In this document: positions 32,283-46,442 of the stretch, piece by piece
Layout: each line of letters opens with the position of its first letter
Numbering within the stretch: position 1 is the stretch's first letter
DNA from: Acidimicrobiales bacterium
GTDB taxonomy: Bacteria; Actinomycetota; Acidimicrobiia; Acidimicrobiales; Aldehydirespiratoraceae
Assembly (NCBI GenBank): GCA_041394245.1
Contig: JAWKIR010000002.1
Location: 1,412,305 to 1,476,304 of the forward strand
DNA length: 64,000 bases
Direction: 5' to 3'
Notes under the pieces: generated by a model
Told to the model about the DNA's origin: nothing
The model's input: only the letters and a program-made list of their open reading frames with translations
Database searches by the model: none
Made by a program: the position numbers and the translations under genes

Positions 32283-34394
32283 GTGCGTGTGGCAGCACTC
32301 GACGACGCGGATCGGCTCGCGGCGCTCCAGGACAGCGGCCTCCTCGGTGGTGACCCGCTTCCCGGTCTCGACGGCGTGCTTCGCATCGCTCGCCATGTCA
32401 TGGGCACATCGACGGTCATGTTCACCGCAGTCGACGTCGACCGCCAGGTGTTCGTCGACCACATCGGTCTGAACGAGGCCTGGGCGAGCGCCGGCCAGAC
32501 CCCGCTGTCGCACTCGTACTGTCGCCTGGTCGTCACGGGAGACGCGCCGTTGGTCGTACGCGACGCTCCGAACGACGAACGGGTGCGGAACAACCCGGCG
32601 ACCGCCGAGGCGAGCATCGGCGCCTACCTCGGCGTGCCCGTGCGATCCGTCGACGGCCACATCCTCGGTTCGCTGTGTGCGCTCGACGGCTCCCCCCGCG
32701 CCTGGACGAACGACCAGATCCGCGTCCTGACGGATCTCGCCGGTGCCATCGAGGTCGAACTCACTCTGCGCGACACCACCAGGGAGCTGGCCGACCGACT
32801 GACATCGGAGTCGCTCGAACGGGGGTTCGAGGAGTCGATGACCGCCCTCGCGGCGGCGACGTCGCGATCATGGACCGTCGACGCGGTGGTGCGCTCCATC
32901 GTCGAGAACGCGAAGGCGGCCACCGGCGCCGCGGTGGTCACCGTTGCCCTCCACGAGGACGACACCCTTCGCATCTTCGATGCCCGGGAGCCTGGCACGA
33001 GCGGCGAGGACGGATGGCACACGACCGACATCGACACCCCGTCGCCCATGACCGACGCGGCACGCAACGGGCGGACACTGATCCTCCCGGACCCACCGGC
33101 GATGGCCGAGTGGCCCGAGTTCGCCGACACGATGGCGGACCTCGACCTGCAGTCCTACATCGCGATGCCGGTGGGCACGACCGACAGCGGAGCGAGGGCG
33201 GTCATCGGCGTCGGCTGGACGAGCCCGATGAAGAGCCGCGACATGCCGCGCCCGGTCGCCCGTCTCGCCACACTGGCTCGACACGGGCTCGATCGGGCCC
33301 ACAGCCACGAGACGGCGCGGGTCCATGCCGAACTCCTCGAGACCCTCGTCCTACCCGAGACACTCCCGTCGGTTCCTGATCTCGACATCGCGGGGGTCTA
33401 TCTTCCGCCCTCGGCCGGCCAGCGGGTCGGCGGCGACCTCTACGACGCCGTGACCCGCGACGACGGGCGCATCGCGTTGATCGTCGCCGATGCGGCCGGC
33501 CACGACGTCGTCGGCTCGCTCGTCACCAGCCGGGTGCGCAACGCCTTCACGATGTTGTCCCTCGACCTTCGCAGCCCCGCCCACACGATGCGCGCCATCA
33601 ATCGCTACCTGATGCGCTCGACCATCACGACACACATCACCGCCGTCGTGGCGCTCGTCGATCTCGAAACCGGCACCGTGACCATCGCGAACGCCGGCCA
33701 CCTCCAACCCCGGCTGCGCCGCGCCGACGGGCGGGTCGATCGCGTCGGTCCGGCCGGAGAACCACTGCTCGGCCTCCAGACATTCGACTATCACGAAGCC
33801 GAGGTGCCCTTCGACGAGGGCGACAGACTACTCCTGTTCACCGACGGCCTGATCGAGTGGCGGGACCGACCGCTGACGGCGAGCGAGCAGGCGCTCGACG
33901 ACATGCTCGGCGCCCTCGGCACGGAAGGATCAGCCGCCGCCGTGGATCGCCTCTCGTCGGCGCTGCCCTCACGGGACGACGATCTGGCGCTGATGCTGCT
34001 CACGCGGCGCGCTCCGGCACGCGACCACGGGCTCGAGTTGGAGTGGCCGGCCGCCGAGATCTCGCTCGGCAACGCCCGGTCTCGATTGTCGCGATGGCTG
34101 GACGGTCATCCGCGGCTCGACGACATCGTGTTGATCGCGACCGAGCTCCTCACCAACGCCCGCACGGCCAGCGACCGGCCCGACCGACCGGTGACGCTCC
34201 GCGCCTCCCGAGACGACCACTCGGTGTGCCTACGCGTCACGAACCACGGTCCGGCACTCCCGACGGGGACACCGCCGATGCCCGACGCAGCGAACATCCG
34301 CGGACGAGGCCTCGCAATCGTCGCCGCGGTCGCAGACCTGCGCATCGAGAACGTCGACGGCCAGGTGACGGTCGAGGCCCGTCTGTCCGACTAG
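32283..34394 (+). CDS. multidomain partner-switching regulator: GAF-GAF-PP2C (SpoIIE) phosphatase-RsbW-like HATPase domain
   Basis: Two GAF-like sensor regions. PP2C motifs GGDLYD, ADAAGHD, LFTDGL. C-terminal TELLTNA N-box and GRGLAIVAAVAD G2-like box. Confidence 0.8.
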   Translation: MRVAALDDADRLAALQDSGLLGGDPLPGLDGVLRIARHVMGTSTVMFTAVDVDRQVFVDHIGLNEAWASAGQTPLSHSYCRLVVTGDAPLVVRDAPNDERVRNNPATAEASIGAYLGVPVRSVDGHILGSLCALDGSPRAWTNDQIRVLTDLAGAIEVELTLRDTTRELADRLTSESLERGFEESMTALAAATSRSWTVDAVVRSIVENAKAATGAAVVTVALHEDDTLRIFDAREPGTSGEDGWHTTDIDTPSPMTDAARNGRTLILPDPPAMAEWPEFADTMADLDLQSYIAMPVGTTDSGARAVIGVGWTSPMKSRDMPRPVARLATLARHGLDRAHSHETARVHAELLETLVLPETLPSVPDLDIAGVYLPPSAGQRVGGDLYDAVTRDDGRIALIVADAAGHDVVGSLVTSRVRNAFTMLSLDLRSPAHTMRAINRYLMRSTITTHITAVVALVDLETGTVTIANAGHLQPRLRRADGRVDRVGPAGEPLLGLQTFDYHEAEVPFDEGDRLLLFTDGLIEWRDRPLTASEQALDDMLGALGTEGSAAAVDRLSSALPSRDDDLALMLLTRRAPARDHGLELEWPAAEISLGNARSRLSRWLDGHPRLDDIVLIATELLTNARTASDRPDRPVTLRASRDDHSVCLRVTNHGPALPTGTPPMPDAANIRGRGLAIVAAVADLRIENVDGQVTVEARLSD

Positions 34395-35119
34395 GAGCGG
34401 TACTCGGGATTCTGGTCGGCCGCATTCGTGACGTGTGACCACTCCCCCACCGTGTTTCCCTCGGTCGGGAATCCTCCGCGGTCTCGCAGCATGCGGGCCG
34501 TGTGCATGAGGTTCCACGCCATGACCGTGCAGTTCTTGTTGGTGAACTCGCTGTCGTACCCGGCCGGTGTCGTCTGTCCGTCGATCTCGTCGCCGTAGCT
34601 GGGTCCGGGACCGATAGATCCGAGCCAGCCACAGTCCGCACCAGGAGGAATGACGTAGCCGATGTGTTGCAGGGCGTAGAGCACATCGCGGGCGACGGCC
34701 TTCACACCGTCCTCGTTGCCGGTCACGACACAGCCGGCCGTCTTGCCGTAGTACACGTACTGGCCCCGATCGTTGGTCTCGGCACTGTTCGCATACATCC
34801 GCTCGATCGCGAGCGTCGCCACACTCGACTTCGCTCCCAGCCAGATCGGCGAGCCGACCACCAGAATGTCGGCCGCCTCGATGCGGTCCTGGATCATCGG
34901 CCAGTCGTCGACCGGCGCGCTGTGTTCGGTCATGTCCTTGTCCATGCCGAAGGGGATCCGGTGGTCGAGTGCGTGCACCACCTCGACCGCGACCCCCTCG
35001 GCTTCCATGATCCCGGCCGCCCGCTGCACCAGTCGCATGGTGTGCGACTCGCTCGGGTCGCGTTTCAGCGAGCAGTTGAGGAAGAGGGCGGAGAGGTCGG
35101 AGAATCCCACGTCGGTCAT
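34391..35119 (-). CDS. flavodoxin-like NAD(P)H-dependent FMN reductase family protein
   Basis: Start MTDVGFSD (cat at 35117-19). ..LFLNCSLK.., ..ILVVGSPIWLG.. The stop overlaps the convergent upstream gene by 4 nt. Confidence 0.7.
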   Translation of the reverse strand: MTDVGFSDLSALFLNCSLKRDPSESHTMRLVQRAAGIMEAEGVAVEVVHALDHRIPFGMDKDMTEHSAPVDDWPMIQDRIEAADILVVGSPIWLGAKSSVATLAIERMYANSAETNDRGQYVYYGKTAGCVVTGNEDGVKAVARDVLYALQHIGYVIPPGADCGWLGSIGPGPSYGDEIDGQTTPAGYDSEFTNKNCTVMAWNLMHTARMLRDRGGFPTEGNTVGEWSHVTNAADQNPEYRS

Positions 35120-35128
35120 GGCCGGGCG

Positions 35129-35154
35129 ATACCCACCGACCGGCACCGGCAAAC
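35129..35154 (-). promoter_or_regulatory. SigF/SigB-type promoter candidate (GGTTT-N16-GGGTAT)
   Basis: Minus strand reads CAGGTTT GCCGGTGCCGGTCGGT GGGTAT CGCCCGGCC ATG. The -10 ends 9 nt before the ATG at 35119. Confidence 0.55.
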
Positions 35155-35160
35155 CTGCGG

Positions 35161-35202
35161 TTGCGTCAGGCCGCGATTGCGTCAGGCCACTATCGCGTCA
35201 GG
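35161..35202. repeat. three direct GCGTCAGG repeats with a 16-bp period
   Basis: ttGCGTCAGGcc (35161-72), ttGCGTCAGGcc (35177-88) and tcGCGTCAGG (35193-202). They lie just upstream of the -35 of the promoter candidate and overlap the antiporter stop codon. Confidence 0.6.
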
Positions 35203-36931
35203 AAGGCGCGCGGATGACGATCGCTCGTTCGTTCTCCCCGAGCGCCACCGATCGGCCTGCGAAGTGGACCCGGCCCGCGGCATCGATCACACACACGAGC
35301 TCGGAGTCGTCCTCACCCTCGTCGAGCGGGCCGTCGACGACGACGAGCGAAGCGCCCTGGGCGTAGAGCTCGCTGAGGCGTTCGGCATTGAGATGCTCGG
35401 GCAGGACGAGCCGCGGGTTCACAGTCTGCGTGGTCCCGGGTTCGGAGAGCGTTTCGAGCGCAGCGAGTCCGAAGACGTTGGCCGACCCGATCTCCTCGGC
35501 CAGGCGTTTCGCGCTGAACGCGTCGAGGTGGTCGGTTCCGGAGAGGACCACTCCCGTGCCGACCCCGATCGCAGCGATCGCTTCGTCGAATGCGTGACCG
35601 TCGAGCCTGCCCTGGAACGCGAGCAGACCGAGAGCAGCCGCCCGGTCGGCCTCCTCCTCGTCGAGTCCGAGCAACAGCGTCACCACACCGGCTTCGGTGA
35701 GTCGCTCGGCCAGCTCGATCGCGAACGGACTGCCGCCCACGATCGCCACACCGGAAGGTTCGGGCTTGGCGACCCTCAGTCGACGAGCGACCCCGCGGGC
35801 GAGCACGCTCGTCACGACGACGGTGGTCACGACCACCGTGAACACCGTGGGCACGAGGGGTCCGGGATCGATGCCCTCGTGGTCGAGTTCGATCGCGAAG
35901 AGCGACGCGACGGCCGCGGCGACCACACCGCGGGGCGCCATCACCATCAGGAAGCCCCGATCGGCTCGCCCCAATTGTGTGCCGATGGTAGAAGCCACGA
36001 CGGCCAGGGGGCGGGCGAGAACCATCAGGACAGCGGCGAGCAGGACCGAGGGAATCAGCCCATCGACCACCACGTCGAGGTCGACTCGCGCGCCGAGCAC
36101 GATGAACAGCACACCCAACACCGTGGTGCCGAGGTTCTCGTTGAATTCGGTGATGCGCGCCGCCGGAATGAACTGCTGGTTGGCGAAGGCCATTCCCAGC
36201 AACGTGACGGCCAACAAGCCTGCCTCCGGACGCAGCAGGTTCGCCGTAGCGAACGCGCCGAGCACCGCGGCCAGGGTGAGGGGCACGTGGAGACGGTCGG
36301 CGACGAGGCGACTCCGGAGCGCACCGACCAGCACCAGGGCGACGATCGCACCGACCACCGCACCGGCCCCGAAGGTGCTGAGGAGACGCAGGAGGATCCG
36401 GCCGACCGATCGCTCCTCGACGATCGCGTCGAGCACGCCGATCGCCAGCGAGGCACCGATGGGGTCGATCAGGATGCCTTCCCACTTCAGGACCGATCCG
36501 GCAGGCTCGCGGGGACGAACGACGCGCAGCAGCGGAGCGATCACGGTGGGGCCCGAGACCGTGAGGATGGCGGCCATGAGCACCGCGATGTCGGTGTCGA
36601 CATCGAAGAGCAGCAGCGTGAAGACGGTTCCCACCGCCCACGAGACGGCAACCCCGATCGTGACCAGGCGGAGTACCGGTTGACGCGCCGTCCCGAGGGA
36701 CTTCCAGTGCAACCCCGTCCCACCCTCGAAGAGGAGAATCGCGACTCCGAACGACACTCCGGTGAACAGCAGCTCACCGAAGATCTCGTCCGGGTCCATC
36801 ACTGTTCCCAGGCCCATGCCGGCGACCAGGAGGAACAGCACCGACGGAACCCGGAGTCGGGCACCGAGCATCTGGCATCCGATCGCTGCGCCGGCGATGA
36901 CGGCAACGGCGGTCTGTGGATCGGTGATCAT
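35198..36931 (-). CDS. cation:proton antiporter (CPA1, Na+/H+ exchanger family) with a C-terminal RCK/TrkA-N-like domain
   Basis: About 10-12 TM segments, then ..GVAIVGGSPFAIELAERL.. Rossmann-like cytosolic domain. Confidence 0.8.
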   Translation of the reverse strand: MITDPQTAVAVIAGAAIGCQMLGARLRVPSVLFLLVAGMGLGTVMDPDEIFGELLFTGVSFGVAILLFEGGTGLHWKSLGTARQPVLRLVTIGVAVSWAVGTVFTLLLFDVDTDIAVLMAAILTVSGPTVIAPLLRVVRPREPAGSVLKWEGILIDPIGASLAIGVLDAIVEERSVGRILLRLLSTFGAGAVVGAIVALVLVGALRSRLVADRLHVPLTLAAVLGAFATANLLRPEAGLLAVTLLGMAFANQQFIPAARITEFNENLGTTVLGVLFIVLGARVDLDVVVDGLIPSVLLAAVLMVLARPLAVVASTIGTQLGRADRGFLMVMAPRGVVAAAVASLFAIELDHEGIDPGPLVPTVFTVVVTTVVVTSVLARGVARRLRVAKPEPSGVAIVGGSPFAIELAERLTEAGVVTLLLGLDEEEADRAAALGLLAFQGRLDGHAFDEAIAAIGVGTGVVLSGTDHLDAFSAKRLAEEIGSANVFGLAALETLSEPGTTQTVNPRLVLPEHLNAERLSELYAQGASLVVVDGPLDEGEDDSELVCVIDAAGRVHFAGRSVALGENERAIVIRAPS

Positions 36932-37047
36932 CGAACGCCACCCCTCATCGCCTCGACGGCGAGCCGTCGACGCGCCTGCCGCGAGCGCGGCGCACCCGAT
37001 GAACGGATAGATTTCGCCCGAGCGTCGCGGAGCCCGGAGGACACATC

Positions 37048-37350
37048 GTGGAGATTCAGCCGATCGTGCAGGACGACGGCACCCGTGTCGCGGTGCACGG
37101 CGAAGCCGACGCCGACAATTGCCACGAACTCGGGGCCGCGCTCCTCGACGAGTCGTTGATCGGCCCCGTCCGTCTCGACCTGGCCGGGCTGTCGTTCCTC
37201 GACTCCTCGGCGGTCAGCGAGCTGCTCGGCATCCAGCAGGAGTTGGCGACACGCGGCATCGAACTGTCGATCGTCGAGACCTCGCCGGCCGTGCACCGCG
37301 TCCTCGAGATCACGGGCCTTCTCGACGTTTTCGGCATCGACGCGAGCTGA
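37048..37350 (+). CDS. STAS-domain anti-sigma-factor antagonist (RsbV/SpoIIAA/RsfA-RsfB-like)
   Basis: 100 aa, GTG start. ..LDLAGLSFLDSSAVSELL.. with the conserved Ser position. ..VLEITGL...F. Confidence 0.8.
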   Translation: MEIQPIVQDDGTRVAVHGEADADNCHELGAALLDESLIGPVRLDLAGLSFLDSSAVSELLGIQQELATRGIELSIVETSPAVHRVLEITGLLDVFGIDAS

Positions 37351-37357
37351 ACGCAAC

Positions 37358-38140
37358 TCAGCCCCGCCCGAGGCCCGTTGTGCCCGGCCCGATCTGCTCA
37401 CGGAGCGTCTCGAGCGAGCGTCGGATCAGGCGGCTCACGTGCATCTGGCTCACGCCGACCCGTTCGGCGATCTCCGATTGCGTGAGCGATCCTGCGAAGC
37501 GCAGCTCGAGAATCTCGCGTTCACGCGGCGGAAGGGTCTCGAGCAGACCACTGATCGCCATCTTGGTGTCGAACCGATCCACGTCGACATCGGTCGTCGT
37601 GAGAGCGGGTGGTGTCGCGCGGGGCGCCTCGTCGGCCGATGATGCCGCACTGTCGATGCTCGACGCCCGATAGGACCGCTGCACGTCGAGGGCCTCGAGT
37701 ACCGCGTCGGTGTCGAGTCCGGTCTCGGCGGCGATCTGATCCACGGTCGGTGACGCGCCGAGCCTGAGCGCCAGTTCGTCGACGACGGCGCGCACATGGA
37801 GCGATCGCTCCTGCAGCGACCGCGGAACGTGCACGGACCACGTGGCGTCGCGAAAGTAGCGCTTGAGCTCCCCGTCGATGGTCCGACCGGCGAAGGTGGA
37901 GAACTGCACGCCGATCGACGGGTCGAACCGGTCGACTGCCTTGACGAGTGCGAGCATCGCCACCTGACGGAGATCAGCGCTTTCGGCGCCACGGTCTCGG
38001 TAGCGAGCGGCGAAGTACTCGGCCAGCGGCACGAACGACTCGACGATCGCGTTGCGATTCGTCTCGCTCGGATCGGCGGCGAACGCCTCGAAGAGCCGGT
38101 CGCGATCCGAGGCGTTCGCCCCGGGTCGCTCAGACGGCAT
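37358..38140 (-). CDS. RNA polymerase sigma factor, SigB/SigF/SigG subfamily
   Basis: Start MPSERPG (cat at 38138-40). DLRQVAMLALVKAVDRFD, WSVHVPRSLQE, LTQSEIAERVGVSQMHVSRLIRRSL. Closely parallels M. tuberculosis SigF as I remember it. Confidence 0.9.
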   Translation of the reverse strand: MPSERPGANASDRDRLFEAFAADPSETNRNAIVESFVPLAEYFAARYRDRGAESADLRQVAMLALVKAVDRFDPSIGVQFSTFAGRTIDGELKRYFRDATWSVHVPRSLQERSLHVRAVVDELALRLGASPTVDQIAAETGLDTDAVLEALDVQRSYRASSIDSAASSADEAPRATPPALTTTDVDVDRFDTKMAISGLLETLPPREREILELRFAGSLTQSEIAERVGVSQMHVSRLIRRSLETLREQIGPGTTGLGRG

Positions 38141-38522
38141 CGACAGCGGCCTTGGCCTTCGACAGACGAATACGACGCCGTCCGCTCTCGGACTCGTCCA
38201 GCTGGAAGTCATCGACCGTCGCACCGAGGATCGCTTCGACGAGATCGTCGACACCGACCGGCGCGAGCGCCTCACCGGTGCGCACGCCGACGATCTCGAC
38301 CACGCCGTCGGACGCGTCGAGCGTCAACGTGACCTCGCCGCCGACCTCGTCGTCGGCCAGAAGCCAGGTGAGCGCCTCGGTGACGGCGAGACGGAGATCA
38401 TCGAGCTCCTCGACGTCGAACCCGGCCGCTGCGCCGACCGCGGCGGCATTCAACCGACCGACGACGAGATACCCCGGGCGAGCGGGAAACCCGATCCTGA
38501 GTTGATCGATCTCATTGGGCAC
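38130..38522 (-). CDS. anti-sigma factor, UsfX/RsbW-like with a degenerate HATPase fold
   Basis: GTG start behind GGAAGAGGA. Overlaps the sigma gene by 11 nt. DLRLAVTEALTWLL corresponds to the UsfX DLRLAVDEVCTRLI region. No DxGxG or G2 box seen. Confidence 0.65.
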   Translation of the reverse strand: MPNEIDQLRIGFPARPGYLVVGRLNAAAVGAAAGFDVEELDDLRLAVTEALTWLLADDEVGGEVTLTLDASDGVVEIVGVRTGEALAPVGVDDLVEAILGATVDDFQLDESESGRRRIRLSKAKAAVDAV

Positions 38523-38536
38523 AGCGTGTCCTCTTC

Positions 38537-38563
38537 CTGTGACGCGTCTTGCTGTGACGCGTC
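38537..38563. promoter_or_regulatory. two copies of CTGTGACGCGTC, each containing the 8-bp palindrome GACGCGTC
   Basis: 38537-48 and 38552-63, 15-bp period. They sit 15-41 nt upstream of the anti-sigma GTG. Confidence 0.4.
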
Positions 38564-38606
38564 GCCGGCACGAGGCGAAGCCTACGCGCCGGCGCGGTCC
38601 ATGGGC

Positions 38607-38750
38607 TCACGTGAAGACACTCACACCGCCGGGACCCACGAGCAGGCCGACGATGATCAGCACGGCACCGTAGGTGAACTGCTTGCGCACGACGGCGACG
38701 ATTCCGGAAACGACGAGGATGACGGCGAGGAGCCAGAGGAGAAACGACAT
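38607..38750 (-). CDS. small membrane protein (47 aa, GPGG motif)
   Basis: MSFLLWLLAVILVVSGIVAVVRKQFTYGAVLIIVGLLVGPGGVSVFT gives two TM helices. ATG behind AGGAATATCCC. Confidence 0.55.
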   Translation of the reverse strand: MSFLLWLLAVILVVSGIVAVVRKQFTYGAVLIIVGLLVGPGGVSVFT

Positions 38751-38798
38751 GGGATATTCCTGCTTTCTTGTGGTTGGTTCTTTGTGATGCTGGAAGGG

Positions 38799-38824
38799 GT
38801 ACCCGGAGCGCGGAGGTCCGAAAC
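38799..38824 (-). promoter_or_regulatory. SigF/SigB-type promoter candidate (GGGTTT-N16-GGGTAC)
   Basis: Minus strand reads CGGGTTT CGGACCTCCGCGCTCC GGGTAC, 48 nt upstream of the small-membrane-protein ATG. Confidence 0.55.
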
Positions 38825-38829
38825 CCGGT

Positions 38830-39273
38830 TCAATCGGCCCGTGCTTCGGCCATGCCGGCCCGGTAGGCGGTGGCGAGCGCCTGCTTCTCGATGTCGTCGA
38901 GCGCCTTTCCCGCCAGCTGGAACACCTCTTGTTCCTCCTCCCGGAGGTGATGCAGGAGGCGGTGCTCGAGCTCACGGGCGGTCACCAGGAACTGGGGTGC
39001 CGACATGTCGTAGCCGTCGAGCTGCTCGATGAAGTCCTCGAGTTCCTTGTGCTCGGCAACACTGTGACGCGCCATCTCCTGCGTCAGATCGTCACCCATC
39101 AGCGGCACGTAGAACTGACGTTCCTCGTGCACCGCGTGAGCGGACAACTCGTCCTTGAGTTCCTCGAACGAGGCCTCCCGGGCCTCGCTCGCGCCGGTTG
39201 TGTCGAGGAGCTCCCCGATCAGCCGACGCTGCCGTTCGTGGTCCTCGCGAAGCGCTTCGAAGATCGTCATCAT
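38830..39273 (-). CDS. hemerythrin HHE cation-binding domain protein
   Basis: Start MMTIFEAL behind AAGGA. ..REDHERQR.., ..HAVHEERQFY.., ..VAEHKELE.., ..LEHRLLHHLREEE.. His/Glu ligand pattern. Confidence 0.8.
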   Translation of the reverse strand: MMTIFEALREDHERQRRLIGELLDTTGASEAREASFEELKDELSAHAVHEERQFYVPLMGDDLTQEMARHSVAEHKELEDFIEQLDGYDMSAPQFLVTARELEHRLLHHLREEEQEVFQLAGKALDDIEKQALATAYRAGMAEARAD

Positions 39274-39339
39274 CTCGTGTCCTTTCAGGATTCCGACGTC
39301 TCGCCGTGGGCCGACGTCGTGGGCGGTGAGGGAGCGGAC

Positions 39340-39364
39340 GTACCCGACCGCGTCGGGTTCAAAC
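39340..39364 (-). promoter_or_regulatory. SigF/SigB-type promoter candidate (GGGTTT-N15-GGGTAC)
   Basis: Minus strand reads GGGGTTT GAACCCGACGCGGTC GGGTAC, 66 nt upstream of the hemerythrin ATG. Confidence 0.55.
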
Positions 39365-39397
39365 CCCCGTGTGGCCGATTGCGGGAGCATGCGCATC

Positions 39398-39423
39398 GTT
39401 TAGCTGCACGCGACGGCGGGTAT
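39398..39423 (+). promoter_or_regulatory. SigF/SigB-type promoter candidate (GTTT-N16-GGGTAT)
   Basis: ATCGTTT AGCTGCACGCGACGGC GGGTAT, 32 nt upstream of the ATG at 39456 (RBS AGGAGA). Confidence 0.6.
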
Positions 39424-39455
39424 GCCCGACGCGAACCCACACACAGGAGAACCCC

Positions 39456-39863
39456 ATGGGCGCCATCCGCAAGGCCTTGTCGATCACGACCCTCGGAGTC
39501 GTGAACTGGCGAAGCAAATCCGAACTGCTCGAGATCGAGCGTGCTGCGCTGGACGAGACGAGCGAGAAGCTCGCCGAGCAGCAGGCGAAGGCAGAACGCC
39601 TCGGCCGGCGGGCGAGGAAGGCCGAGAAGAGGGCCCGCAAGGCCGAGCTGAACGAGCTGAAGACCGCAAGGTCCGCCCGCCGCCGACGCCGCTTCCTGCG
39701 CCGCAAGCAGAAGGTGGCCCTCGCCGCGAAGGGCGCAACCGCGGATGCGAGCGCCGCCGCTTCCGCTCAGTCCCGACGCGCCCGTCGCAAGCTCCGCCGA
39801 GCGGAGAAGAAGGCTCGGTCGCAGGTCGACGCCGTCACCGACGCAGTCCACGACCTCGCCTGA
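39456..39863 (+). CDS. hypothetical Lys/Arg-rich coiled-coil-like protein (135 aa)
   Basis: ATG behind AGGAGA. ..AERLGRRARKAEKRARKAELNELKTARSARRRRRFLRRKQK... No family recognised. Confidence 0.55.
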   Translation: MGAIRKALSITTLGVVNWRSKSELLEIERAALDETSEKLAEQQAKAERLGRRARKAEKRARKAELNELKTARSARRRRRFLRRKQKVALAAKGATADASAAASAQSRRARRKLRRAEKKARSQVDAVTDAVHDLA

Positions 39864-39904
39864 GGTCTCTCACCAGGTCCTGTCACCGCCTGGCGAGCCG
39901 GCCG

Positions 39905-41335
39905 CTACGGTCCGATCATTCCGCGTTCGTCGGGGGCGAGCAGCCCCGTCGGCACGTCGGGATCCTCGAACGGCAGCGCGGGGCGGGAGTACTCGACCGT
40001 CCCGAGTGCCATGGTGAACAAGTCGACGGCGTCGCGCAGCACCGCTTCGTCGATGCCGTGCCGATCGGCGACGAGGTCGACCAGCTCCTCGCCCGATGCG
40101 CGGGCGTCACGTTGGGCGACGGCAGCGGCGTCGTAGCCGATCAGCGGCGCCAAGGCCGTCACGATCGCCTGTGATCCCTCTGCGAGCGCACGACACCGCT
40201 CGAGGTGGGGCACGACCTTCGCCACCACCTTCTCTGCGAGCATGTCGGCTGCTGCGGTCAGCAGATCCAGCGAGTCGAGCAGGTCGTGCACGATGAGCGG
40301 CAGGTAGGTGTTGAGTTCGAGCGCGCCGCGCGATCCGGCGTGGGTGATCCCAGCGTCGTTGCCGATGACTCGGGCGACGATCTGGTTCACCACCTCGGGA
40401 ATCACCGGGTTGACCTTGCCCGGCATGATCGACGACCCGGGTTGCAACTCCGGCAGCTCGATCTCGCCGAGACCGGCGGTCGGACCGCTCGCCATCAGCC
40501 GGAGATCGTTGGCGATCTTGTCGAGGGAACACGCGACGGTCTTCGCCCGTCCGGAGAGATCGACCAGGTCGTCGTGCGCTCCCTGGAGGGCGAAGTGGTT
40601 CGGACAGGGGGTCAGGTCGAGGCCGGTGGACACGGCGAGTTCGTGGATCGCCCGTTCGGCGTAGCCGGGCGGCGCATTGAGGCCGTTGCCGACCGCGGTC
40701 CCACCGAGCGGGAGCCGCCCCAGGTTCGCCATGAGCGAGTCGATCCGGGAGCGACCGTCGACCACCTGTTGGCGGTAGCCACCGAACTCCTGGCCGAGCG
40801 TGATCGGCACCGCGTCCTGCATGTGGGTGCGACCGACCTTCACGACGTGCCGGCTGTTGACCTCGTGCAACCCGAGCTCCCGCTCGAGCCGGGCGAGCGC
40901 GGACACGAGACGGTTCGCCGCCTCGAGCACTGCTATCCGGCTGCCGCTCGGCATCACGTCGTTGCTCGACTGCCCCAGATTCACATGATCGATCGGGTGA
41001 ACCGGGGTTCCGTCGAGGAGCTGTTCCGCCCGTGCCGCGACCACCTCGTTGACGTTCATGTGGGTCGATGTCGCCGAACCGGTCTGAAACACGTCGACGA
41101 CGAACTGGTCGTCCCATGCGCCGGTGCGGATCTCCTCACAGGCCGTGGCGATCGCCTCGGCGATCGGGCTCGGCAACCGTTCGGGCACCAGGTCGCACAG
41201 CACGCCGGCCGCCGCCGCCTTGATCCTCGCGACGGCGTGGACGACGGGGAGCGGGAACACGACACCGGACGCGTCGAAGTTCTCCACCGCCAGGCGGGTG
41301 TGCTCGCCGTAGAGGGGGACGCTGGGAGTCGTCAT
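39905..41335 (-). CDS. aspA: aspartate ammonia-lyase (class II fumarase/aspartase family)
   Basis: Start MTTPSVPLYGEH (cat at 41333-35). Signature GSSIMPGKVNPVIPEVVNQ is aspartase-type rather than the fumarase PTQCEA type. ATGA overlap with the upstream gene. Confidence 0.75.
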   Translation of the reverse strand: MTTPSVPLYGEHTRLAVENFDASGVVFPLPVVHAVARIKAAAAGVLCDLVPERLPSPIAEAIATACEEIRTGAWDDQFVVDVFQTGSATSTHMNVNEVVAARAEQLLDGTPVHPIDHVNLGQSSNDVMPSGSRIAVLEAANRLVSALARLERELGLHEVNSRHVVKVGRTHMQDAVPITLGQEFGGYRQQVVDGRSRIDSLMANLGRLPLGGTAVGNGLNAPPGYAERAIHELAVSTGLDLTPCPNHFALQGAHDDLVDLSGRAKTVACSLDKIANDLRLMASGPTAGLGEIELPELQPGSSIMPGKVNPVIPEVVNQIVARVIGNDAGITHAGSRGALELNTYLPLIVHDLLDSLDLLTAAADMLAEKVVAKVVPHLERCRALAEGSQAIVTALAPLIGYDAAAVAQRDARASGEELVDLVADRHGIDEAVLRDAVDLFTMALGTVEYSRPALPFEDPDVPTGLLAPDERGMIGP

Positions 41336-42747
41336 CCTCCGTCCTCGCCGAACGTCCGGTCTCTGGATGTTGCGGGGAACCGACCTGACCAGGGCGTCTC
41401 TGTCGTCCAGTCGGGCTGCACATCGGCATGCGCTCCATCGATGATCGCCCGACCGTCGACGAGGTCGACCAGCGGCGCGACCACGGGATCCGGACCCGAC
41501 CGCACACCGGCCGGGTCGGCCAACGCGTCCGGGAAGAAGGCGAGGAGTCCGTCGACGACACCCTGGATCTGGCCGGCGAGCCCGCACCGGGCACCTTCGA
41601 CCACCCTGGCCGACGAGACCTGGAGGGATTCGGCGACCGCGGGCAGGCGTTCGGCGCCGCTCCTGGCCGCGTCCAGGTGACCGGCGATCGCCAGACCCTC
41701 GGTCTTGCAGGGCAGGCACTGTCCGCAGCTCTCGACCGACAGGAACGAGGCGGCTGCCCGCGCGATCGCAACCGGATGGGTCCCCTTCGCGAAGACCCGG
41801 ATCGCCGCCGCGCCGATCGGCAGCGACGTCTCGGCGTCGGGTTGTGGGACCATCGGTCTGTCGAGGTGACCGGCCGGGATCAGCGGATACGACACGCCGT
41901 TGAGCACGGCCGCGGCATCATCGGCGCCGTCGCCGACCACGTCGCGCAACGAGGTGCCGACCGGGAACTCCTCGACTCCGGCGACAGGAACGTCGCCGCT
42001 GACGGTGGCGAGAAAGGTCGCCACCGGCCATTCGGGACGATCCGCACCGTGATACCGGATCACGTGAGCGACACGAGCAAGCGTTTCGACATTGTGGACG
42101 AGCGCGGGCGGCGGCAGGGTCCCCTCGTCGAACGGCGCAGCCATCGCAGTCGACGCGGGCGATCCCGTCCCGTCCATGTCGAGCGCGCCATGTCGCCATG
42201 GTGGTCCGATACGAGGGAAGGGCTGATGGCCGACGACCACCTCGAGCAGCGCAGACTCCTCGCCGAACAGGTACCGGTCGGGCCCGTAGACGAACACCAC
42301 CTCGGCAATGCGCTCGGTCGCCAACGCCTGCACCTCCGCTACCGCCGACTTCAGTCGGGCGACCTCGGTCGCGAAGCTCTCCTTCGTCGCGATGACGATG
42401 GTGTCGGCCCCGACGGCGCGGGCGGCGATGACCGCTCCCTCGACGACCGAATAGGGGTCCCGGCGTATCAGCATTCGATCCTTGAACGAACCGGGCTCGC
42501 CCTCGGCCGCGTTCACGACCAGCGACGGCGCCGCCTCCACGGATCGGAAGCGGTTCGTCGTCCGCCACTTCGTCGCGACCGGGAACCACGCTCCCCCGCG
42601 GCCACGAAGACCGGCCTCGTCGATGACGTCGATCGTCGCTTCGGCGCCGAGGAGGGACGCTGCGAGGATCGCGTCGCCGGCTCGGGCTCGCAGGTGATGC
42701 GAGTACGACGCGACAGGGGCGGGCGGCAGCACGGAGTTCGGGTCCAT
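41332..42747 (-). CDS. NuoF-like (complex I 51-kDa subunit family) FMN/NADH/4Fe-4S protein, stand-alone
   Basis: GLRGRGGAWFPVATKW, NAAEGEPGSFKDR, YLFGEESALLE, ESCGQCLPCK. Start MDPNSV at 42747 (alternative 42777). Confidence 0.7.
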   Translation of the reverse strand: MDPNSVLPPAPVASYSHHLRARAGDAILAASLLGAEATIDVIDEAGLRGRGGAWFPVATKWRTTNRFRSVEAAPSLVVNAAEGEPGSFKDRMLIRRDPYSVVEGAVIAARAVGADTIVIATKESFATEVARLKSAVAEVQALATERIAEVVFVYGPDRYLFGEESALLEVVVGHQPFPRIGPPWRHGALDMDGTGSPASTAMAAPFDEGTLPPPALVHNVETLARVAHVIRYHGADRPEWPVATFLATVSGDVPVAGVEEFPVGTSLRDVVGDGADDAAAVLNGVSYPLIPAGHLDRPMVPQPDAETSLPIGAAAIRVFAKGTHPVAIARAAASFLSVESCGQCLPCKTEGLAIAGHLDAARSGAERLPAVAESLQVSSARVVEGARCGLAGQIQGVVDGLLAFFPDALADPAGVRSGPDPVVAPLVDLVDGRAIIDGAHADVQPDWTTETPWSGRFPATSRDRTFGEDGG

Positions 42748-42756
42748 GGCGCCGCC

Positions 42757-42782
42757 GTACCCCTGCGCCACGCCCATCAAAC
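42757..42782 (-). promoter_or_regulatory. SigF/SigB-type promoter candidate (GTTT-N16-GGGTAC)
   Basis: Minus strand reads CATGTTT GATGGGCGTGGCGCAG GGGTAC GGCGGCGCC ATG. The -10 ends 9 nt before the ATG at 42747. Confidence 0.5.
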
Positions 42783-42790
42783 ATGGCGGT

Positions 42791-42816
42791 GTTTGGCACG
42801 ACCGGTCGGCGGGTAG
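42791..42816 (+). promoter_or_regulatory. SigF/SigB-type promoter candidate (GTTT-N16-GGGTAG)
   Basis: GGTGTTT GGCACGACCGGTCGGC GGGTAG, 34 nt upstream of the ATG at 42851. Its -35 is back to back with the divergent -35. Confidence 0.5.
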
Positions 42817-42850
42817 GGCGACCATCGACCATCGACACTCGGAGCTGAAG

Positions 42851-43303
42851 ATGACACCGCACCCGACCGACTCGAGCCCACTCGACCCCACCTTCGCGAG
42901 AGGATCGGACACTCTCGTCACGGTGCTCGCCAGCGCCGCGGCCGCGGGGTACGCGACCGCCATGACGGTGTCTCCCGGTGCCGTGATGGTTTGCGGCAAC
43001 TGTGCCGAGCACGCTGCTGCGCGTGCCGTTTCCGTCGACCGCTACCGGCGTCTGGAAGGCGCCAGCGACGCAGCTGATCTCATGCTCGTCGCCTTGGTTC
43101 GCTGTCCTCACTGCGAGATCGGCGGCACGCTCACCTTCGGCTACGGGCCGAACTCGGGAGTCGACGACGACGATTTCCTGTCGGAACTGGATCTGGGCGA
43201 CGCAACGCAACGGGCTGACGGGTTTGTCGCCGACCACGAGGCCGCCGACCACGAGAGGGCCGGTCTCCGGGACCCGGACCACGCCCAAGGAGGAACGACG
43301 TGA
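42851..43303 (+). CDS. hypothetical Zn-ribbon protein (CxxC...CxxC)
   Basis: ATG behind GGAG. VCGNCAEH ... RCPHCEIG, 37 residues apart. Acidic C-terminus. GTGA overlap with the following USP gene. Confidence 0.55.
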   Translation: MTPHPTDSSPLDPTFARGSDTLVTVLASAAAAGYATAMTVSPGAVMVCGNCAEHAAARAVSVDRYRRLEGASDAADLMLVALVRCPHCEIGGTLTFGYGPNSGVDDDDFLSELDLGDATQRADGFVADHEAADHERAGLRDPDHAQGGTT

Positions 43304-43809
43304 AGATTCTGCTGGCAGTCGACGACAGTGCGACGAGCTACGAAGCAGCGCTCGTCGTCTCACAATGGTTCGGCGACGACGCGTCGATCGTGGCACTGCA
43401 CGTCGGCACCGTCACGCCGACACTCTCGTCGACGGAGCATCTGGCCGTCGGCGGGTCCGGCTACCCCGTGTTCGCGCTTCCCGCGCTGCGAGAACGCATG
43501 ACGGAGATCACGCGCGCGGCCCGTGAGGTCGCAGCTCGCGCCGCCAACCTCACGGACGGTTCGGTCCGCACGGAGCAGGGGGATCCGGCCGACGTCATCG
43601 TCGCGGTCGCGGCCGAGATAGATGCCGACCTCATCGTGGTCGGCACCGGAGATCGATCGTGGCTCTCCCGCCTGCTCAACCCGTCGGTGAGCTCGACCGT
43701 GGCCGAGAAGGCGCCGTGCTCGGTCCTCGTCGTCCGGTCCGGCGCACTGGGTGAATCGACACTGGGTGAATCGACACTGGGGGAATCGACAGTGGGGGAA
43801 CCGACATGA
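43300..43809 (+). CDS. universal stress protein (UspA family) with a C-terminal LGEST repeat
   Basis: MKILLAVDDS.., ..ADLIVVGT.., ..VAEKAPCSVLVV... Ends in ALGESTLGESTLGESTVGEPT. Confidence 0.8.
   Translation: MKILLAVDDSATSYEAALVVSQWFGDDASIVALHVGTVTPTLSSTEHLAVGGSGYPVFALPALRERMTEITRAAREVAARAANLTDGSVRTEQGDPADVIVAVAAEIDADLIVVGTGDRSWLSRLLNPSVSSTVAEKAPCSVLVVRSGALGESTLGESTLGESTVGEPT
43747..43806 (+). repeat. 15-bp tandem repeat x4 at the 3' end of the USP gene
   Basis: CTGGGTGAATCGACA, CTGGGTGAATCGACA, CTGGGGGAATCGACA, GTGGGGGAACCGACA. The last unit supplies the A of the next gene's ATG. Confidence 0.9.
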
Positions 43810-44843
43810 CAGCGGTGCATCCGCCCCGCGTGACCACGGCTGAACTCCAACACCTCGCCCGCGGGCAGGCACCGTTCGTGTCGATCTATGTCGACACCCG
43901 CACCGCGCACCGAGACACGCTCGTGCAGCGCGTCGCCGCCGTCGCCGACGGCCTCTGCGTCCTCGGCGCGCCGGACGACATCGTGCGTCGGACGACCACG
44001 GCGTTCCTGGCGCCGCCCGCCGATCGCGCCGGCCTCGCCGTTGTCGCGTCCAGCGACGGTCGGACCGTCGTCGCGTCCTCGCCCGAACCGTTCGAGCGGG
44101 ACGTCGGTTTGTACTCCCGGGTCCCGTACCTCGGGCCGATGATCGAGATCGCCCAACAATCGATCACACATGCCGTCGTGCGCGACACCGAGCACGGCGT
44201 GCCCGACCTCACGGTGTTCGGCGCGGACGGCAGCGTCCAGACGACCACCGCGGCGGCACCACAGCGCACCGACGACGTGCTCGCGGAAGTCGTTCGCCAC
44301 GATCCGGCCGTCGTTTTCGTCGTCGGAGACGCCCCGACGTCGATGGTCACCCACCTCGAGCGAATGGTCGCCGAGAACCGCCTCCGCCCCGACTGCAGGA
44401 TCGAGCCCCTCGACGAGGGAACCGACGACGACGTCGCCGACGCCGTCGTGCGCCACGCCGCCGGCGTGGTGGCCTCCCACAAGGTCGAGTTGCTGCGCGA
44501 GTTCCGCTTCGAACGCTCGCACGGGCGGGCCGTCGACGGCATCGACGCGGTTGTCGCGGCGGTCAACGCCGGACTGGTCGCCACCTTGATCCTCAACGCC
44601 GACCCCGACGACCATCGTCGGGCGATCGTCGGCTCCGAGGGAGACATCGTCCCCCTGGACGGTCCGGTCGCCTCTCCGTCACCCGCCGTCGACGAGGTCC
44701 CGCTCGTCGACGCGCTCATCTGGGCCACTCTGGCCCGCGGGGGCGCCGGCGCGGTCATCCCGACGACCGGCGACGGCGGACCGGCCGACGACATCGGAGC
44801 GCTGCTGATCCCGCGACCGGCGAACGGTCTCATCGACCGGTGA
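43806..44843 (+). CDS. bacterial eRF1-like (baeRF / Rv2629 / Balon-like) protein; the CDS is well supported but the function is tentative
   Basis: ATGA overlap with the USP gene. 345 aa. The N-terminus ..LQHLARGQAPFVSIYVDTRTAH.. resembles the ..GPWASVYLDTS.. start of actinobacterial proteins annotated Vms1/Ankzf1- or Rv2629-like (from memory). USP neighbourhood. Confidence 0.45.
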   Translation: MTAVHPPRVTTAELQHLARGQAPFVSIYVDTRTAHRDTLVQRVAAVADGLCVLGAPDDIVRRTTTAFLAPPADRAGLAVVASSDGRTVVASSPEPFERDVGLYSRVPYLGPMIEIAQQSITHAVVRDTEHGVPDLTVFGADGSVQTTTAAAPQRTDDVLAEVVRHDPAVVFVVGDAPTSMVTHLERMVAENRLRPDCRIEPLDEGTDDDVADAVVRHAAGVVASHKVELLREFRFERSHGRAVDGIDAVVAAVNAGLVATLILNADPDDHRRAIVGSEGDIVPLDGPVASPSPAVDEVPLVDALIWATLARGGAGAVIPTTGDGGPADDIGALLIPRPANGLIDR

Positions 44844-44870
44844 CGCCGGCACCACGATCGAGGGCCTGAC

Positions 44871-46442
44871 TCAGGGATGCGCCGTGCGGAACCGGACCTC
44901 TCGCTCGAGACTGGTCGACAGCAGACCGCTGCGCTCCTCCGCCGCGAAGACCTCCAGCTCGGCGCTCTCGCCGTCGGCGACGTGCAGCTCGATGTCGAGC
45001 CGCGTGTCGGAGATGGTCACTCCGGTGCGTTCCACGACCCGTCGATAGCTGCGATCGAGCCCGATGCCCACGCGCAGCAGCCCGGCCAGGACCCGCACCG
45101 TGTGCTGGTCCTGCTCTGGGAGGGCGGAGAACTCGAGATGACGGGGCCGCGGTTCGCTCTTGCGGTGATAGCGGGCGACGAGCGCGATCAGCTCGAGCTC
45201 CTGCTCGGTGAACCCCAACAATTGCTCGGAGTTGCGGATCAGGTAGTAGGAGTGCTTGTGGTGGGCGGCGTGTGCGATGAAACGCCCGACGTTGTGGAGG
45301 ACGCCGGCCGCCTCGAGGATCTCCCGCTCGGGCTCACCCAAACCGTGGATCGGGGCGGTCTCGTCGAACAGCCCGAGTGCAAGGTCGGTCGCGTGCTTCG
45401 CATGGGCGACGTCTTCGTCGAAGCGGTCCGCAACGGCGAGCACGCTGCGGCGCCGGAGGTCGGGAAGGTGATGCAGCGCGCCCTTCGCCCCGGCCCGTCG
45501 GTCCAGCCGATCGAGAACGACCCCCTCGCGTAGCGCGTTGGGTGACACCACCATCTCGTCGATGCCGAAGGCTCGGAACAGCTGCTGCAGCAGGATCGCG
45601 CCGGCGACGATCACATCGGCGCGTGCCTCGTCGAGCCCGGCGAGATCGGCGCGATCCTCCGGCGTCGGTCGTTCGACGAGGGCGTTCACCACCGAACTGA
45701 GTCCCTCACGGGTGAGCACCAGATTGTCGATCGTCCGCACTGTCCGGCCCTCCATTCGGGCTGCCATCGTGGCGACGGTCTCGATGGTCCCCGAGCAGCC
45801 GATCGCCACCTCGTGGCCCAGTGCCCCGACCTCGTTCGCGACCGTCGAGAGGAACGACTTCAGGTACGACTTCAGCTGCCTGACCGACCCCTCGGCGACG
45901 ACACCTCCGGGCATGAAGCCGTCGGTCAGCCGAATGTGACCGAGCTTCATCGAGCGGACCAGCAGGGGTTCGGTCTCGCAGCCGACCACGATCTCCGTCG
46001 ACCCACCCCCGATGTCGATGACCAGATGGTTGCCCGATCCGACTGCGACTGCACTGAGCGCGCCCAGATGGATGAGTCGCGCCTCCTCCACACCGGCGAT
46101 CACCTCGAGGCGCACACCGGTCCGGCGGCGCACCTCGCGCAGAAACGCACGCGGATCGGCCGACTCGCGGACCGCGCTCGTCGCTACCGCGACCAGTTCG
46201 GCGTCGTAGCCCGCCGCGATCTGGGCGAACCGATCGACGGCGGCGATGGCACGTTCCACCGCATCCGGATCGAGCGACTTCATGTCGCGCTCGCCCGACC
46301 CGAGGCGGACCTTCTCGCGATCGCGGGCGATCACGTCGAGCGGTCCGAGCGGCGTCGCCCGGGCGATGACGAGGTGGACGGAGTTCGTGCCGACGTCGAT
46401 CGCCGCGAGCGGTCGTTCGGCATCGGGACTCGTGTCTGTCAC
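44871..46442 (-). CDS. Ppx/GppA family exopolyphosphatase / guanosine pentaphosphate phosphohydrolase with a C-terminal HD-like region
   Basis: AAIDVGTNSVHLVI, IDIGGGSTE, GCSGT ASKHA-fold motifs. ..HHKHSYYLI.. in the C-domain. Confidence 0.85.
   Translation of the reverse strand: MTDTSPDAERPLAAIDVGTNSVHLVIARATPLGPLDVIARDREKVRLGSGERDMKSLDPDAVERAIAAVDRFAQIAAGYDAELVAVATSAVRESADPRAFLREVRRRTGVRLEVIAGVEEARLIHLGALSAVAVGSGNHLVIDIGGGSTEIVVGCETEPLLVRSMKLGHIRLTDGFMPGGVVAEGSVRQLKSYLKSFLSTVANEVGALGHEVAIGCSGTIETVATMAARMEGRTVRTIDNLVLTREGLSSVVNALVERPTPEDRADLAGLDEARADVIVAGAILLQQLFRAFGIDEMVVSPNALREGVVLDRLDRRAGAKGALHHLPDLRRRSVLAVADRFDEDVAHAKHATDLALGLFDETAPIHGLGEPEREILEAAGVLHNVGRFIAHAAHHKHSYYLIRNSEQLLGFTEQELELIALVARYHRKSEPRPRHLEFSALPEQDQHTVRVLAGLLRVGIGLDRSYRRVVERTGVTISDTRLDIELHVADGESAELEVFAAEERSGLLSTSLEREVRFRTAHP

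Follow-up and report, generated by a model that had tools for sequence, protein, structure and literature searches.

A predicted SigB/SigF-type stress operon of an Acidimicrobiales bacterium joins a short-loop Rv2629/Balon-like protein to a universal stress protein and a putative zinc-ribbon protein

Balon/Rv2629-type factors were recognized only in 2024. Rv2629 and Msmeg1130 are non-catalytic hibernation factors of the ribosomal A site, and Balon homologues are found in stress operons and inhibit translation (PMC10901736). The Balon mechanism as described so far has three elements: an HP motif at the N terminus, in contact with A1492 and A1913 in the decoding center, a middle-domain lasso loop that, together with a bL27 trap, contacts A2602 and the peptidyl transferase center (PTC), and a C-terminal beta-hairpin insertion that contacts EF-Tu. 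The reported neighbors of Balon genes, in stress operons, are RaiA, Hsp20, OsmC/Y, HdeD, MarC/EmrB, RtcB and alternative sigma factors; the text of that paper, when searched by word, is without the term “universal stress”. The locus described here is a three-gene operon at positions 42,791 to 44,843 of a 64,000-nucleotide stretch of Acidimicrobiales DNA (contig JAWKIR010000002.1; this whole stretch is called the window). Profile searches and a predicted structure identify the 345-amino-acid (aa) product of its last gene as a three-domain aeRF1-like protein of the baeRF-1 clade and the Rv2629/Balon lineage. That a SigB-type stress regulon can include a protein of the baeRF/Balon family is already known in kind; what is new is the loop-less class to which this protein belongs and its recurrent coupling to one subfamily of universal stress proteins (USPs) and to a four-cysteine protein.

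The three genes form an operon with translational coupling, organized as follows.

42791-42816, + strand: operon promoter, SigB/SigF-type, with -35 GTTTGG (42791-42796), N14 and -10 GGGTAG (42811-42816)
42851-43303, + strand: zinc-ribbon-type gene (ORF1), 150 aa, ATG at 42851
43300-43809, + strand: USP gene, 169 aa, GTG start, with AAGGAGGAA upstream
43806-44843, + strand: baeRF gene, encoding the aeRF1-like protein, 345 aa, ATG start

A GGAG (42841-42844) lies 6 nt before the ATG of ORF1. The stop codon of ORF1 overlaps the USP start as GTGA (43300-43303), and that of the USP gene overlaps the baeRF start as ATGA (43806-43809), exactly as an earlier reading of this DNA, made from the sequence only, had chained the genes. 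In the public annotation, the baeRF gene begins at GTG 43830 and encodes 337 aa; the ATG at 43806, with its ATGA overlap, is the better start because it retains the N-terminal HPPxVT that is conserved among homologues that begin M-x-x-HPP. The G+C fraction at third codon positions is 0.77 in ORF1, 0.79 in the USP gene and 0.88 in the baeRF gene, and conserved homologues exist for all three. A scan of 42400-45200 for sigma-70 promoters and intrinsic terminators found none, an Rfam scan of 32-47 kb gave no match, and PADLOC returned no matches for the three operon proteins.

The family assignment of the 345-aa protein draws on Balon and Rv2629 references from PDB (8V9K, 8V9J, 8V9L, 8RD8) and NCBIfam (NF052289, NF052288, NF052287). 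Its AlphaFold2 (AF2) model (pLDDT 70, pTM 0.64) retrieves Msmeg1130, Rv2629 and P. urativorans Balon as the top six Foldseek matches (E 5e-13 to 6e-10). These are led by Msmeg1130 Balon on the 70S ribosome (8v9l_z, 5e-13; 8v9j_z, 8e-13), with Rv2629 (8v9k_z) at 1.6e-11 and P. urativorans Balon (8rdw_B, 8rdv_B, 8rd8_B) at about 1e-10, all at probability 1.00; aRF1, eRF1, Pelota and Dom34 rank after the Balons. The eRF1/Pelota-like fold for which the sequence-only reading had proposed a search is thus found. At the sequence level, the NCBIfam model Rv2629_fam_RHF matches the protein with an E value of 3e-21 (76 bits). A word-indexed search gave 13 close relatives (47-59% identity, no Pfam domains), the few with a named source all being labelled Acidimicrobiales, and an exhaustive profile search, with E values up to 1e-3 accepted, gave 524 cluster representatives. 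A wide profile made of 64 sequences sampled from the latter matches Rv2629 over its full length (8V9K, 2.2e-44), Msmeg1130 (1.4e-10), aRF1 (3.7e-5) and Pelota (6e-3). Rv2629_fam_RHF is matched by 64/64 of the sampled relatives, and relatives also match baeRF_family2, baeRF_family10, acVLRF1 and aRF1_eRF1. Alignment of the close family with Rv2629 by hhalign has a probability of 88.6% over 301 columns. Narrower queries of PDB were less productive: single-sequence phmmer with the 345-aa protein found nothing, and the close-family profile reached at best a non-significant match to eRF1 (E 1.3).

Features shared with Balon and Rv2629 are the three-domain aeRF1-like fold, the lack of NIKS and GGQ, the terminal motifs, the position of the gene in a predicted stress regulon and an acidic pI (4.8, against 5.0 for Rv2629). 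Both NIKS and GGQ, which the earlier reading had suggested looking for, are absent from the 345-aa sequence. The N-terminal LARGQAPFVSIYVD aligns with LVAAEGPFASVYFD of Rv2629 in hhalign; GPFxSxY/GPFxSVY near the N terminus and P-x-D-G-x-GA-x-LR near the C terminus are common to Rv2629, and P319 is invariant in 64 sequences. This conservation of the terminal motifs speaks for retention of an interface with the ribosome or with EF-Tu. Within the C-domain, the AF2 model predicts two short strands (272-275 and 281-283) at the place expected for the EF-Tu-contact hairpin.

By profile, the 345-aa protein belongs to the baeRF-1 clade (Burroughs & Aravind 2019; Pfam baeRF_family2, 3, 10 and acVLRF1). 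It lacks the catalytic Gln, as do most baeRF-1 families, and the predicted two-strand insert in its C-domain is a possible further likeness to this clade. It differs in that its class is barely detected by the Pfam baeRF models and in its gene partners, which are USP and zinc-ribbon rather than HPF/YfiA, the neighbor reported in the baeRF paper; a word search there finds neither USP nor zinc-ribbon named. The tunnel-occlusion factor RTOF (bioRxiv 10.1101/2024.11.25.625233) was also considered as a relative and was rejected, being an unrelated protein.

The part of the aeRF1 architecture that is missing lies in the middle domain. In hhalign, Rv2629 has about 30 residues left unmatched between the three strands that open this domain and the next helix, and the Rv2629 segment GVGYPVHKPVTAGWNGYGDFQHTTEEAIRMN is without a counterpart in the 345-aa protein. 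In the AF2 model, strand 144-148 passes straight into helix 152-165. The deleted region is the GGQ loop of eRF1 and the lasso loop of Balon (PMC10901736); since the gap covers this region, the PTC-proximal element is deleted and not just degenerate. Among the 146 best-scoring relatives of near-full length, the length of the segment bounded by two conserved anchors separates two classes.

Short-loop class: n = 85, segment of about 25-39 residues (three shorter), median length 346 aa, GGWSQ in 0/85
Long-loop class: n = 61, segment of 55-69 residues, median length 373 aa, GGWSQRRFQ-like motif in 53/61

With 27 residues between the anchors, the window protein is of the short-loop class, whereas Rv2629 is of the long-loop class. 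Where a baeRF-1 family is without the catalytic Gln, the length of the loop is unconstrained (Burroughs & Aravind, PMC6514570), and the deletion therefore falls within known variability. The short-loop class, although it makes up 85/146 of these relatives, escapes the Pfam and NCBIfam equivalog models, with weak matches to the Pfam baeRF models for 4/37 of its members. Among species-representative genomes, the members recovered come mostly from Acidimicrobiia, with weaker matches in Streptomyces, and clustering of the neighbors around the wider set of short-loop baeRF genes yielded no conserved partner. Long-loop relatives have a conserved GGWSQRRFQQRAEN, which is GGxSQ-like and possibly catalytic, and one Acidimicrobiales contig encodes short-loop and long-loop paralogues about 1.7 kb apart; the genes behind these two observations are at L106 3204-4250 and 5918-6916 and at L024 5722-6927.

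After the fold, the best-supported part of the analysis is control of the operon by a SigB/F-type sigma factor. The promoter predicted at 42791-42816 would place the transcription start site near 42823 and leave a leader of about 28 nt. It fits the SigB consensus GTTTAA-N12-14-GGG(A/T)A(A/T) and resembles SCO3557p, a Streptomyces promoter of the SigB-homologue type (GTTTGC-N14-GGGTAC) (PMC8346170). The motif GTTT-N15-17-GGGTA occurs in 6 copies in the window against 0.04 expected, a number reached in 0/100 shuffles, and all six copies lie between 35.1 and 42.8 kb. Genes for a sigma factor and its probable regulators are found about 4.5-10 kb upstream of the operon.

32283-34394, + strand: GAF-PP2C(SpoIIE)-HATPase_c_2 fusion, an RsbU-like phosphatase plus RsbW-like kinase/anti-sigma module
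37048-37350, + strand: STAS-domain anti-sigma-factor antagonist (TIGR00377, 61 bits against a cut-off of 53)
37358-38275, - strand: SigB/SigF/SigG-family sigma factor (TIGR02980, 245.6 bits against a cut-off of 234.35)

The sigma factor has regions 2, 3 and 4 all present and is the likely cognate sigma of the six window promoters; no separate RsbW gene was seen in the partner-switching set of the window. The motif also precedes the homologous operon in every related locus examined (in L112 as a near-match, GGGAA), 7 of the roughly 16 baeRF genes in the wider short-loop set, and 16/79 zinc-ribbon genes, for which about 2% would be expected (background 0.055 per kb). It is this recurrence of the motif footprint across relatives that makes SigB/F-type control strongly supported, and the SigF-type promoter proposed in the sequence-only reading stands.

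That reading had also regarded direct sigma control as unfamiliar. The control itself is supported here, but it has a precedent in yocB, the Balon homologue of B. subtilis (PMC10901736), which is described as “exclusively SigB dependent” (PMC12242773). Like the window gene, yocB is a Balon-family gene under a SigB-type promoter of the GTTT..GGGTA class; it belongs to another phylum and subfamily, and the cited reports give it no USP or zinc-ribbon operon partners. A second comparison is with the M. tuberculosis Rv2623-Rv2631 DosR cluster, where USPs and an Rv2629-type factor are likewise co-regulated by stress or dormancy within a few kb. Rv2629 lies in the DevR operon Rv2628-Rv2631, and the USPs Rv2623 and Rv2624c are in neighboring units (PMC3177182). 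The USP neighborhood attributed earlier to Rv2629 is thus one of regulon neighbors and not of operon partners. In the cluster, control of the Rv2628-Rv2629-Rv2630-RtcB operon is by DevR/DosR and not by a sigma factor, and the USPs form separate transcription units.

The coupling of the window baeRF gene to a USP gene, and often to a zinc-ribbon gene, is a departure from Balon genes, which instead adjoin RaiA. Related loci show the following arrangements.

USP, baeRF: L001-3, L004-6, L113, L114
USP, baeRF, zinc-ribbon: L112, L115
baeRF, zinc-ribbon: L200 (cut upstream)
Zinc-ribbon, USP, baeRF: the window only
USP, zinc-ribbon, with a 4-nt overlap: L196-L199 and L008; in L196-L199 divergent from the NuoF-like/fumarase genes, as in the window
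Zinc-ribbon-USP fusion ORF: L012 (Ilumatobacter)

USP is followed by baeRF in 7/7 close-family contexts with a readable upstream flank, L200 being the eighth. The zinc-ribbon gene is part of the baeRF operon in 4/8 of these contexts: the window, L112 and L115, where the 122-131-aa genes just 3′ of baeRF are zinc-ribbon homologues, and L200, where the gene after baeRF is one. In L196-L199, the USP-zinc-ribbon pair occupies the chromosomal position of the window operon, and in L008 it lies beside another gene. The fusion, a 307-aa ORF in an Ilumatobacter metagenome-assembled genome (L012 3929-4852) that joins zinc-ribbon-family and USP domains, is possibly an artefact of assembly or of a frameshift; immediately upstream of it is a tandem-USP gene. 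In two loci (L113 2789-3433; L115 2696-3358), a DSBA-like gene fills the slot between NuoF and USP that holds the zinc-ribbon gene in the window, and that of L113 has a SigB/F-type promoter of its own.

From these arrangements, USP is the constant element, and its partner is baeRF, zinc-ribbon or both, in varying order. The survey suggested in the sequence-only reading, of zinc-ribbon genes beside baeRF genes, thus gave co-occurrence in the same operon in four of eight contexts, four further cases in which the zinc-ribbon gene is paired with this USP subfamily, and one USP fusion. As a partner in the module, the zinc-ribbon gene is recurrent, as that reading implied, but it is the USP that is constant, and most members of the wider zinc-ribbon family stand alone. 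The USP subfamily and the four-cysteine protein are concrete candidates for regulators of a Balon-type factor, and word searches of the Balon and baeRF papers turned up neither of them as a neighbor of such genes.

Assignment of the middle gene to the UspA family agrees with a match of residues 2-146 to Pfam Usp (PF00582; E 1.2e-22, 81.4 bits against a cut-off of 24). The subfamily is tightly conserved, with 53-67% identity to relatives and an invariant stretch, GTGDRSWLSR..PSVS. ATP-binding USPs of the MJ0577/Rv2623 type have the motif G-x2-G-x9-G-(S/T). In its place, the window protein has G-T-G-D-RSWLSRLLN-P-S, in which Asp replaces the second Gly and Pro the third, invariantly in 8 subfamily members. 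Whereas Rv2623 is an ATP-binding USP, the motif here reads as a degenerate G-x2-D-x9-P-S that departs from the ATP-binding class. The USP is probably a regulatory or adaptor subunit. Its C-terminal (LGEST)n tail, encoded by 4.1 copies of a 15-bp tandem repeat (43745-43806, + strand), is unique to this genome, the homologues being without it. Metagenome scans with the USP protein and with the degenerate GTGDRSWLSRL pattern returned nothing. A genome scan with a generic USP pattern returned 80 loci, almost all of them unrelated USPs from other phyla, in which baeRF is adjacent in 1/80; this is the close-clade locus, and the USP-baeRF coupling is therefore considered clade-specific.

The ORF1 protein contains two CxxC pairs, C48-x2-C51 and C85-x2-C88, as had been noted from the sequence; their spacing is 33 residues and not 37, the latter figure being the offset from the first to the third cysteine. 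The four cysteines are invariant across homologues, as are the motifs RRLEGASDAAD and GYGPN, which together point to a zinc site of structural function and to a surface conserved for interaction. In the AF2 model (mean pLDDT 80; most of the core exceeds 88, apart from a block of 10 residues at 76), the first pair lies between strands 45-48 and 54-56 and the second between strands 77-84 and 91-98. The CxxC knuckles would thus sit at beta-hairpin turns of a mixed sheet, as in a putative zinc ribbon. Foldseek of this model against PDB found nothing significant (best E 0.07), single-sequence phmmer of the 150-aa protein against PDB found nothing, and no Pfam, NCBIfam or PADLOC family was assigned. 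The family, with 136 relatives in species-representative genomes, is uncharacterised and largely confined to Acidimicrobiia. Most of 80 genome loci have neither a USP nor a baeRF partner within 4 kb, and the genes lie near PP2C (13/79 loci), RsbW-like (8/79) and STAS (7/79) genes, and also near NuoF-like or fumarase genes.

The 3′ tail of ORF1 (43214-43303, + strand), about 28 codons, is absent from all homologues. It contains GCTGACGGGTTTGTCG (43214-43229), which matches at 16/16 nt the -35 region that the USP promoter has in L115 and is equally far from the USP start. Next come a tandem duplication of 15 bp (43228-43256) and a degenerate -10; with one copy of the repeat removed, the tail reads GTTT-N16-GGGCC. 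The tail looks like a decayed USP promoter that is now a translated extension of ORF1. Such a history would explain the GTGA overlap and would leave the USP and baeRF genes dependent on the promoter before ORF1.

Taken together, the comparisons lead us to regard the 345-aa protein as, probably, a non-catalytic A-site ribosome-hibernation factor of a stress operon, a role read from sequence, model and the analogy with Balon. Upon stress, a SigB/SigF-type sigma factor would be released by its partner-switching regulators and would transcribe the coupled operon of zinc-ribbon, USP and short-loop baeRF genes. The baeRF protein would then occupy the ribosomal A site non-catalytically and park ribosomes, its PTC contact reduced relative to that of Balon through lack of the lasso contact. 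The USP, with or without the zinc-ribbon protein, would modulate the baeRF protein, the zinc-ribbon protein being a second, optional partner. If short-loop proteins do still hibernate ribosomes, the PTC-proximal contacts would be dispensable or supplied by a partner.

Several observations weigh against a hibernation role of this kind. The 345-aa protein falls short of the equivalog cut-offs of NF052289 (76 against 320 bits), NF052288 (16.5 against 480) and NF052287 (14.4 against 330), and so is not an Rv2629 equivalog; in Pfam it has only a sub-threshold match to baeRF_family3 (22.9 against 31.5 bits). Its model has a global TM of about 0.5 and an rmsd of about 12 Å relative to the Balons, with no tight superposition. 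Loose global superposition is expected of a flexible three-domain protein. The N-domain is modelled with moderate confidence (pLDDT 50-66). The missing stretch approximates to the GGQ loop (the lasso loop in Balon) plus the start of the Arg-rich helix that follows, and the contacts of Balon with the PTC, A2602 and bL27 may not be made. No RaiA/HPF gene, the commonest Balon neighbor, adjoins the operon; the zinc-ribbon gene is missing from half of the close-family operons; and the USP has the degenerate ATP motif described above. At 345 aa, the protein is also shorter than Balon homologues, which span 360-420 aa (bioRxiv 10.1101/2022.11.24.517861). Finally, hibernation by this clade is a role that we infer from a protein known here by its sequence and model. 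Of the earlier proposal of an Rv2629/Balon-like baeRF protein, the fold and the homology (by Foldseek and profile) hold, with the qualifications that the protein is not an equivalog and that the middle-domain loop is missing.

An alternative that keeps the protein on the ribosome is that it acts like Pelota or Dom34, as a non-catalytic rescue or splitting factor for ribosomes stalled under stress. Pelota and Dom34 share the fold, with significant Foldseek and profile matches, the catalytic Gln is missing as in Dom34, and non-catalytic relief of stalled ribosomes has been proposed as an option for baeRF-1 proteins (Burroughs and Aravind, PMC6514570). However, among proteins of solved structure the closest in fold and in sequence alike are Balon, Rv2629 and Msmeg1130, the operon has no ABCE1-like or Hbs1-like partner gene, and the N-domain follows the aeRF1/Rv2629 pattern (GPFxSxY) and not the Sm-like barrel of Pelota, all of which makes a rescue function seem unlikely. 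An active peptidyl-tRNA hydrolase or alternative release factor, of the aeRF1, acVLRF1 or baeRF family 10 type, is scarcely credible. The GGWSQRRFQ of 53/61 long-loop relatives does resemble the GGxSQ of VLRF1-type hydrolases (PMC6514570), but the window protein and all 85 short-loop proteins have lost the loop entirely, GGWSQ occurs in none of the 85, and GGQ is absent; on account of this deleted catalytic loop, an active release factor is rejected for the 345-aa protein.

The trio could also be non-ribosomal, for instance a complex for stress signalling or redox sensing that is centered on the USP and uses the degenerate aeRF1-like protein as no more than a scaffold. In favor of this, the constant member is the USP, which pairs with the zinc-ribbon protein without baeRF in at least four lineages, the missing loop is the part that reaches the catalytic center of the ribosome, and zinc-ribbon genes are often near PP2C, RsbW-like and STAS genes (13, 8 and 7 of 79 loci). 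Set against this are the retention of all three aeRF1 domains and the strong conservation of the N- and C-terminal motifs common to Rv2629, including P319; departure from the ribosome is accordingly judged improbable. That the three-gene chain arose by chance, the zinc-ribbon gene being an unrelated cassette inserted between the promoter and the USP gene, would account for the order zinc-ribbon, USP, baeRF being unique to the window, for a tail of ORF1 that resembles read-through of an old USP promoter, for the scarcity of either partner within 4 kb at most of the 80 zinc-ribbon loci, and for the DSBA-like gene in the same slot of L113 and L115. Its chances appear slim, given that L112 and L115 contain all three families too, in a different order, that baeRF and zinc-ribbon adjoin in L200, and that the zinc-ribbon gene has precisely this USP subfamily as its partner in L008 and L196-L199 and is fused to a USP in L012.

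An elaboration of the hibernation reading gives the USP a more active part. Archaeal and eukaryotic aeRF1 C-domains carry a zinc-ribbon insert. Conceivably, the USP, whose nucleotide site is remodelled, senses a small molecule and by direct binding gates the loop-less Balon-type factor on and off the A site, while the zinc-ribbon protein adds a zinc or redox input or replaces the zinc-ribbon insert of the aeRF1 C-domain; we consider this scheme doubtful. If true, it would provide the first accessory subunits described for a Balon-family factor besides EF-Tu, and a counterpart in bacteria to those hibernation factors of archaea in which an energy-sensing module is fused on. By analogy, HibA (HPF-CBS, PMC13324472) and AHA (AMPK-gamma-HPF, PMC12934967) would be conceptually similar in combining a silencing domain with an energy- or small-molecule-sensing module. 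They differ in that HPF and CBS folds are unrelated to the aeRF1-like and USP folds and in being fusions and not operons.

Downstream of the operon, a gene for a Ppx/GppA-family phosphatase with an HD-type domain III (44871-46442, - strand) converges on the baeRF gene across a gap of 27 nt that is without a terminator-like hairpin. The product is a polyphosphate or (p)ppGpp-related enzyme, and its adjacency to baeRF is not conserved in relatives.

Upstream, positions 35130-42816 form a predicted SigB/F-type regulon island, whose six promoter motifs serve the following genes.

35130-35154, - strand: FMN reductase gene; apparently leaderless, ATG 9 nt after the -10
38800-38824, - strand: GPGG-motif small membrane protein gene, upstream of the sigma gene
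39341-39364, - strand: hemerythrin gene
39398-39422, + strand: gene for an Arg/Lys-rich 135-aa protein
42758-42782, - strand: NuoF-like/fumarase-like operon (apparently leaderless)
42791-42815, + strand: zinc-ribbon/USP/baeRF operon

Four of the sites make up two back-to-back divergent pairs, 39341-39364 (-) with 39398-39422 (+) and 42758-42782 (-) with 42791-42815 (+). The genes opposite the operon and their promoter are as follows.

39905-41329, - strand: class II fumarase/aspartase-like gene, following the NuoF-like gene in the same operon
41332-42747, - strand: stand-alone NuoF-like flavoprotein gene, divergent from the USP operon
42757-42782, - strand: divergent SigB/F-type promoter of this operon, GTTTGA-N14-GGGTAC

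The ATG of the NuoF-like gene, at 42747, is 9 nt after the -10 hexamer. Since in both this gene and the FMN reductase gene the ATG comes exactly 9 nt after the GGGTAN hexamer (35117-35130 and 42745-42758, - strand), the two promoters appear to give rise to leaderless mRNAs. A NuoF-like/fumarase-like pair divergent from the USP operon, with the same promoter type, is also found in L112, L114, L115, L196, L198 and L199, and a back-to-back promoter pair beside the USP operon recurs in L114 and L196-L199. With six promoters, two of them apparently leaderless, the locus shows with unusual clarity a SigB/F-type regulon island of an actinobacterial class that is mostly uncultured and has been little studied.

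The remaining members of the island are small proteins. The GPGG-motif membrane protein (38607-38750, - strand; 47 aa; NF040511, 79.5 bits) is encoded 330 nt upstream of the sigma gene and may be co-transcribed with it, in which case the sigma factor would be autoregulated. On the two sides of the first divergent pair, each behind a SigB/F-type promoter, are genes for a hemerythrin HHE-domain protein (38830-39273, - strand) and for the 135-aa protein (39456-39863, + strand), which has no Pfam or NCBIfam family. The latter is coiled-coil-like, and its Arg/Lys-rich composition would suit a nucleic-acid or ribosome binder.

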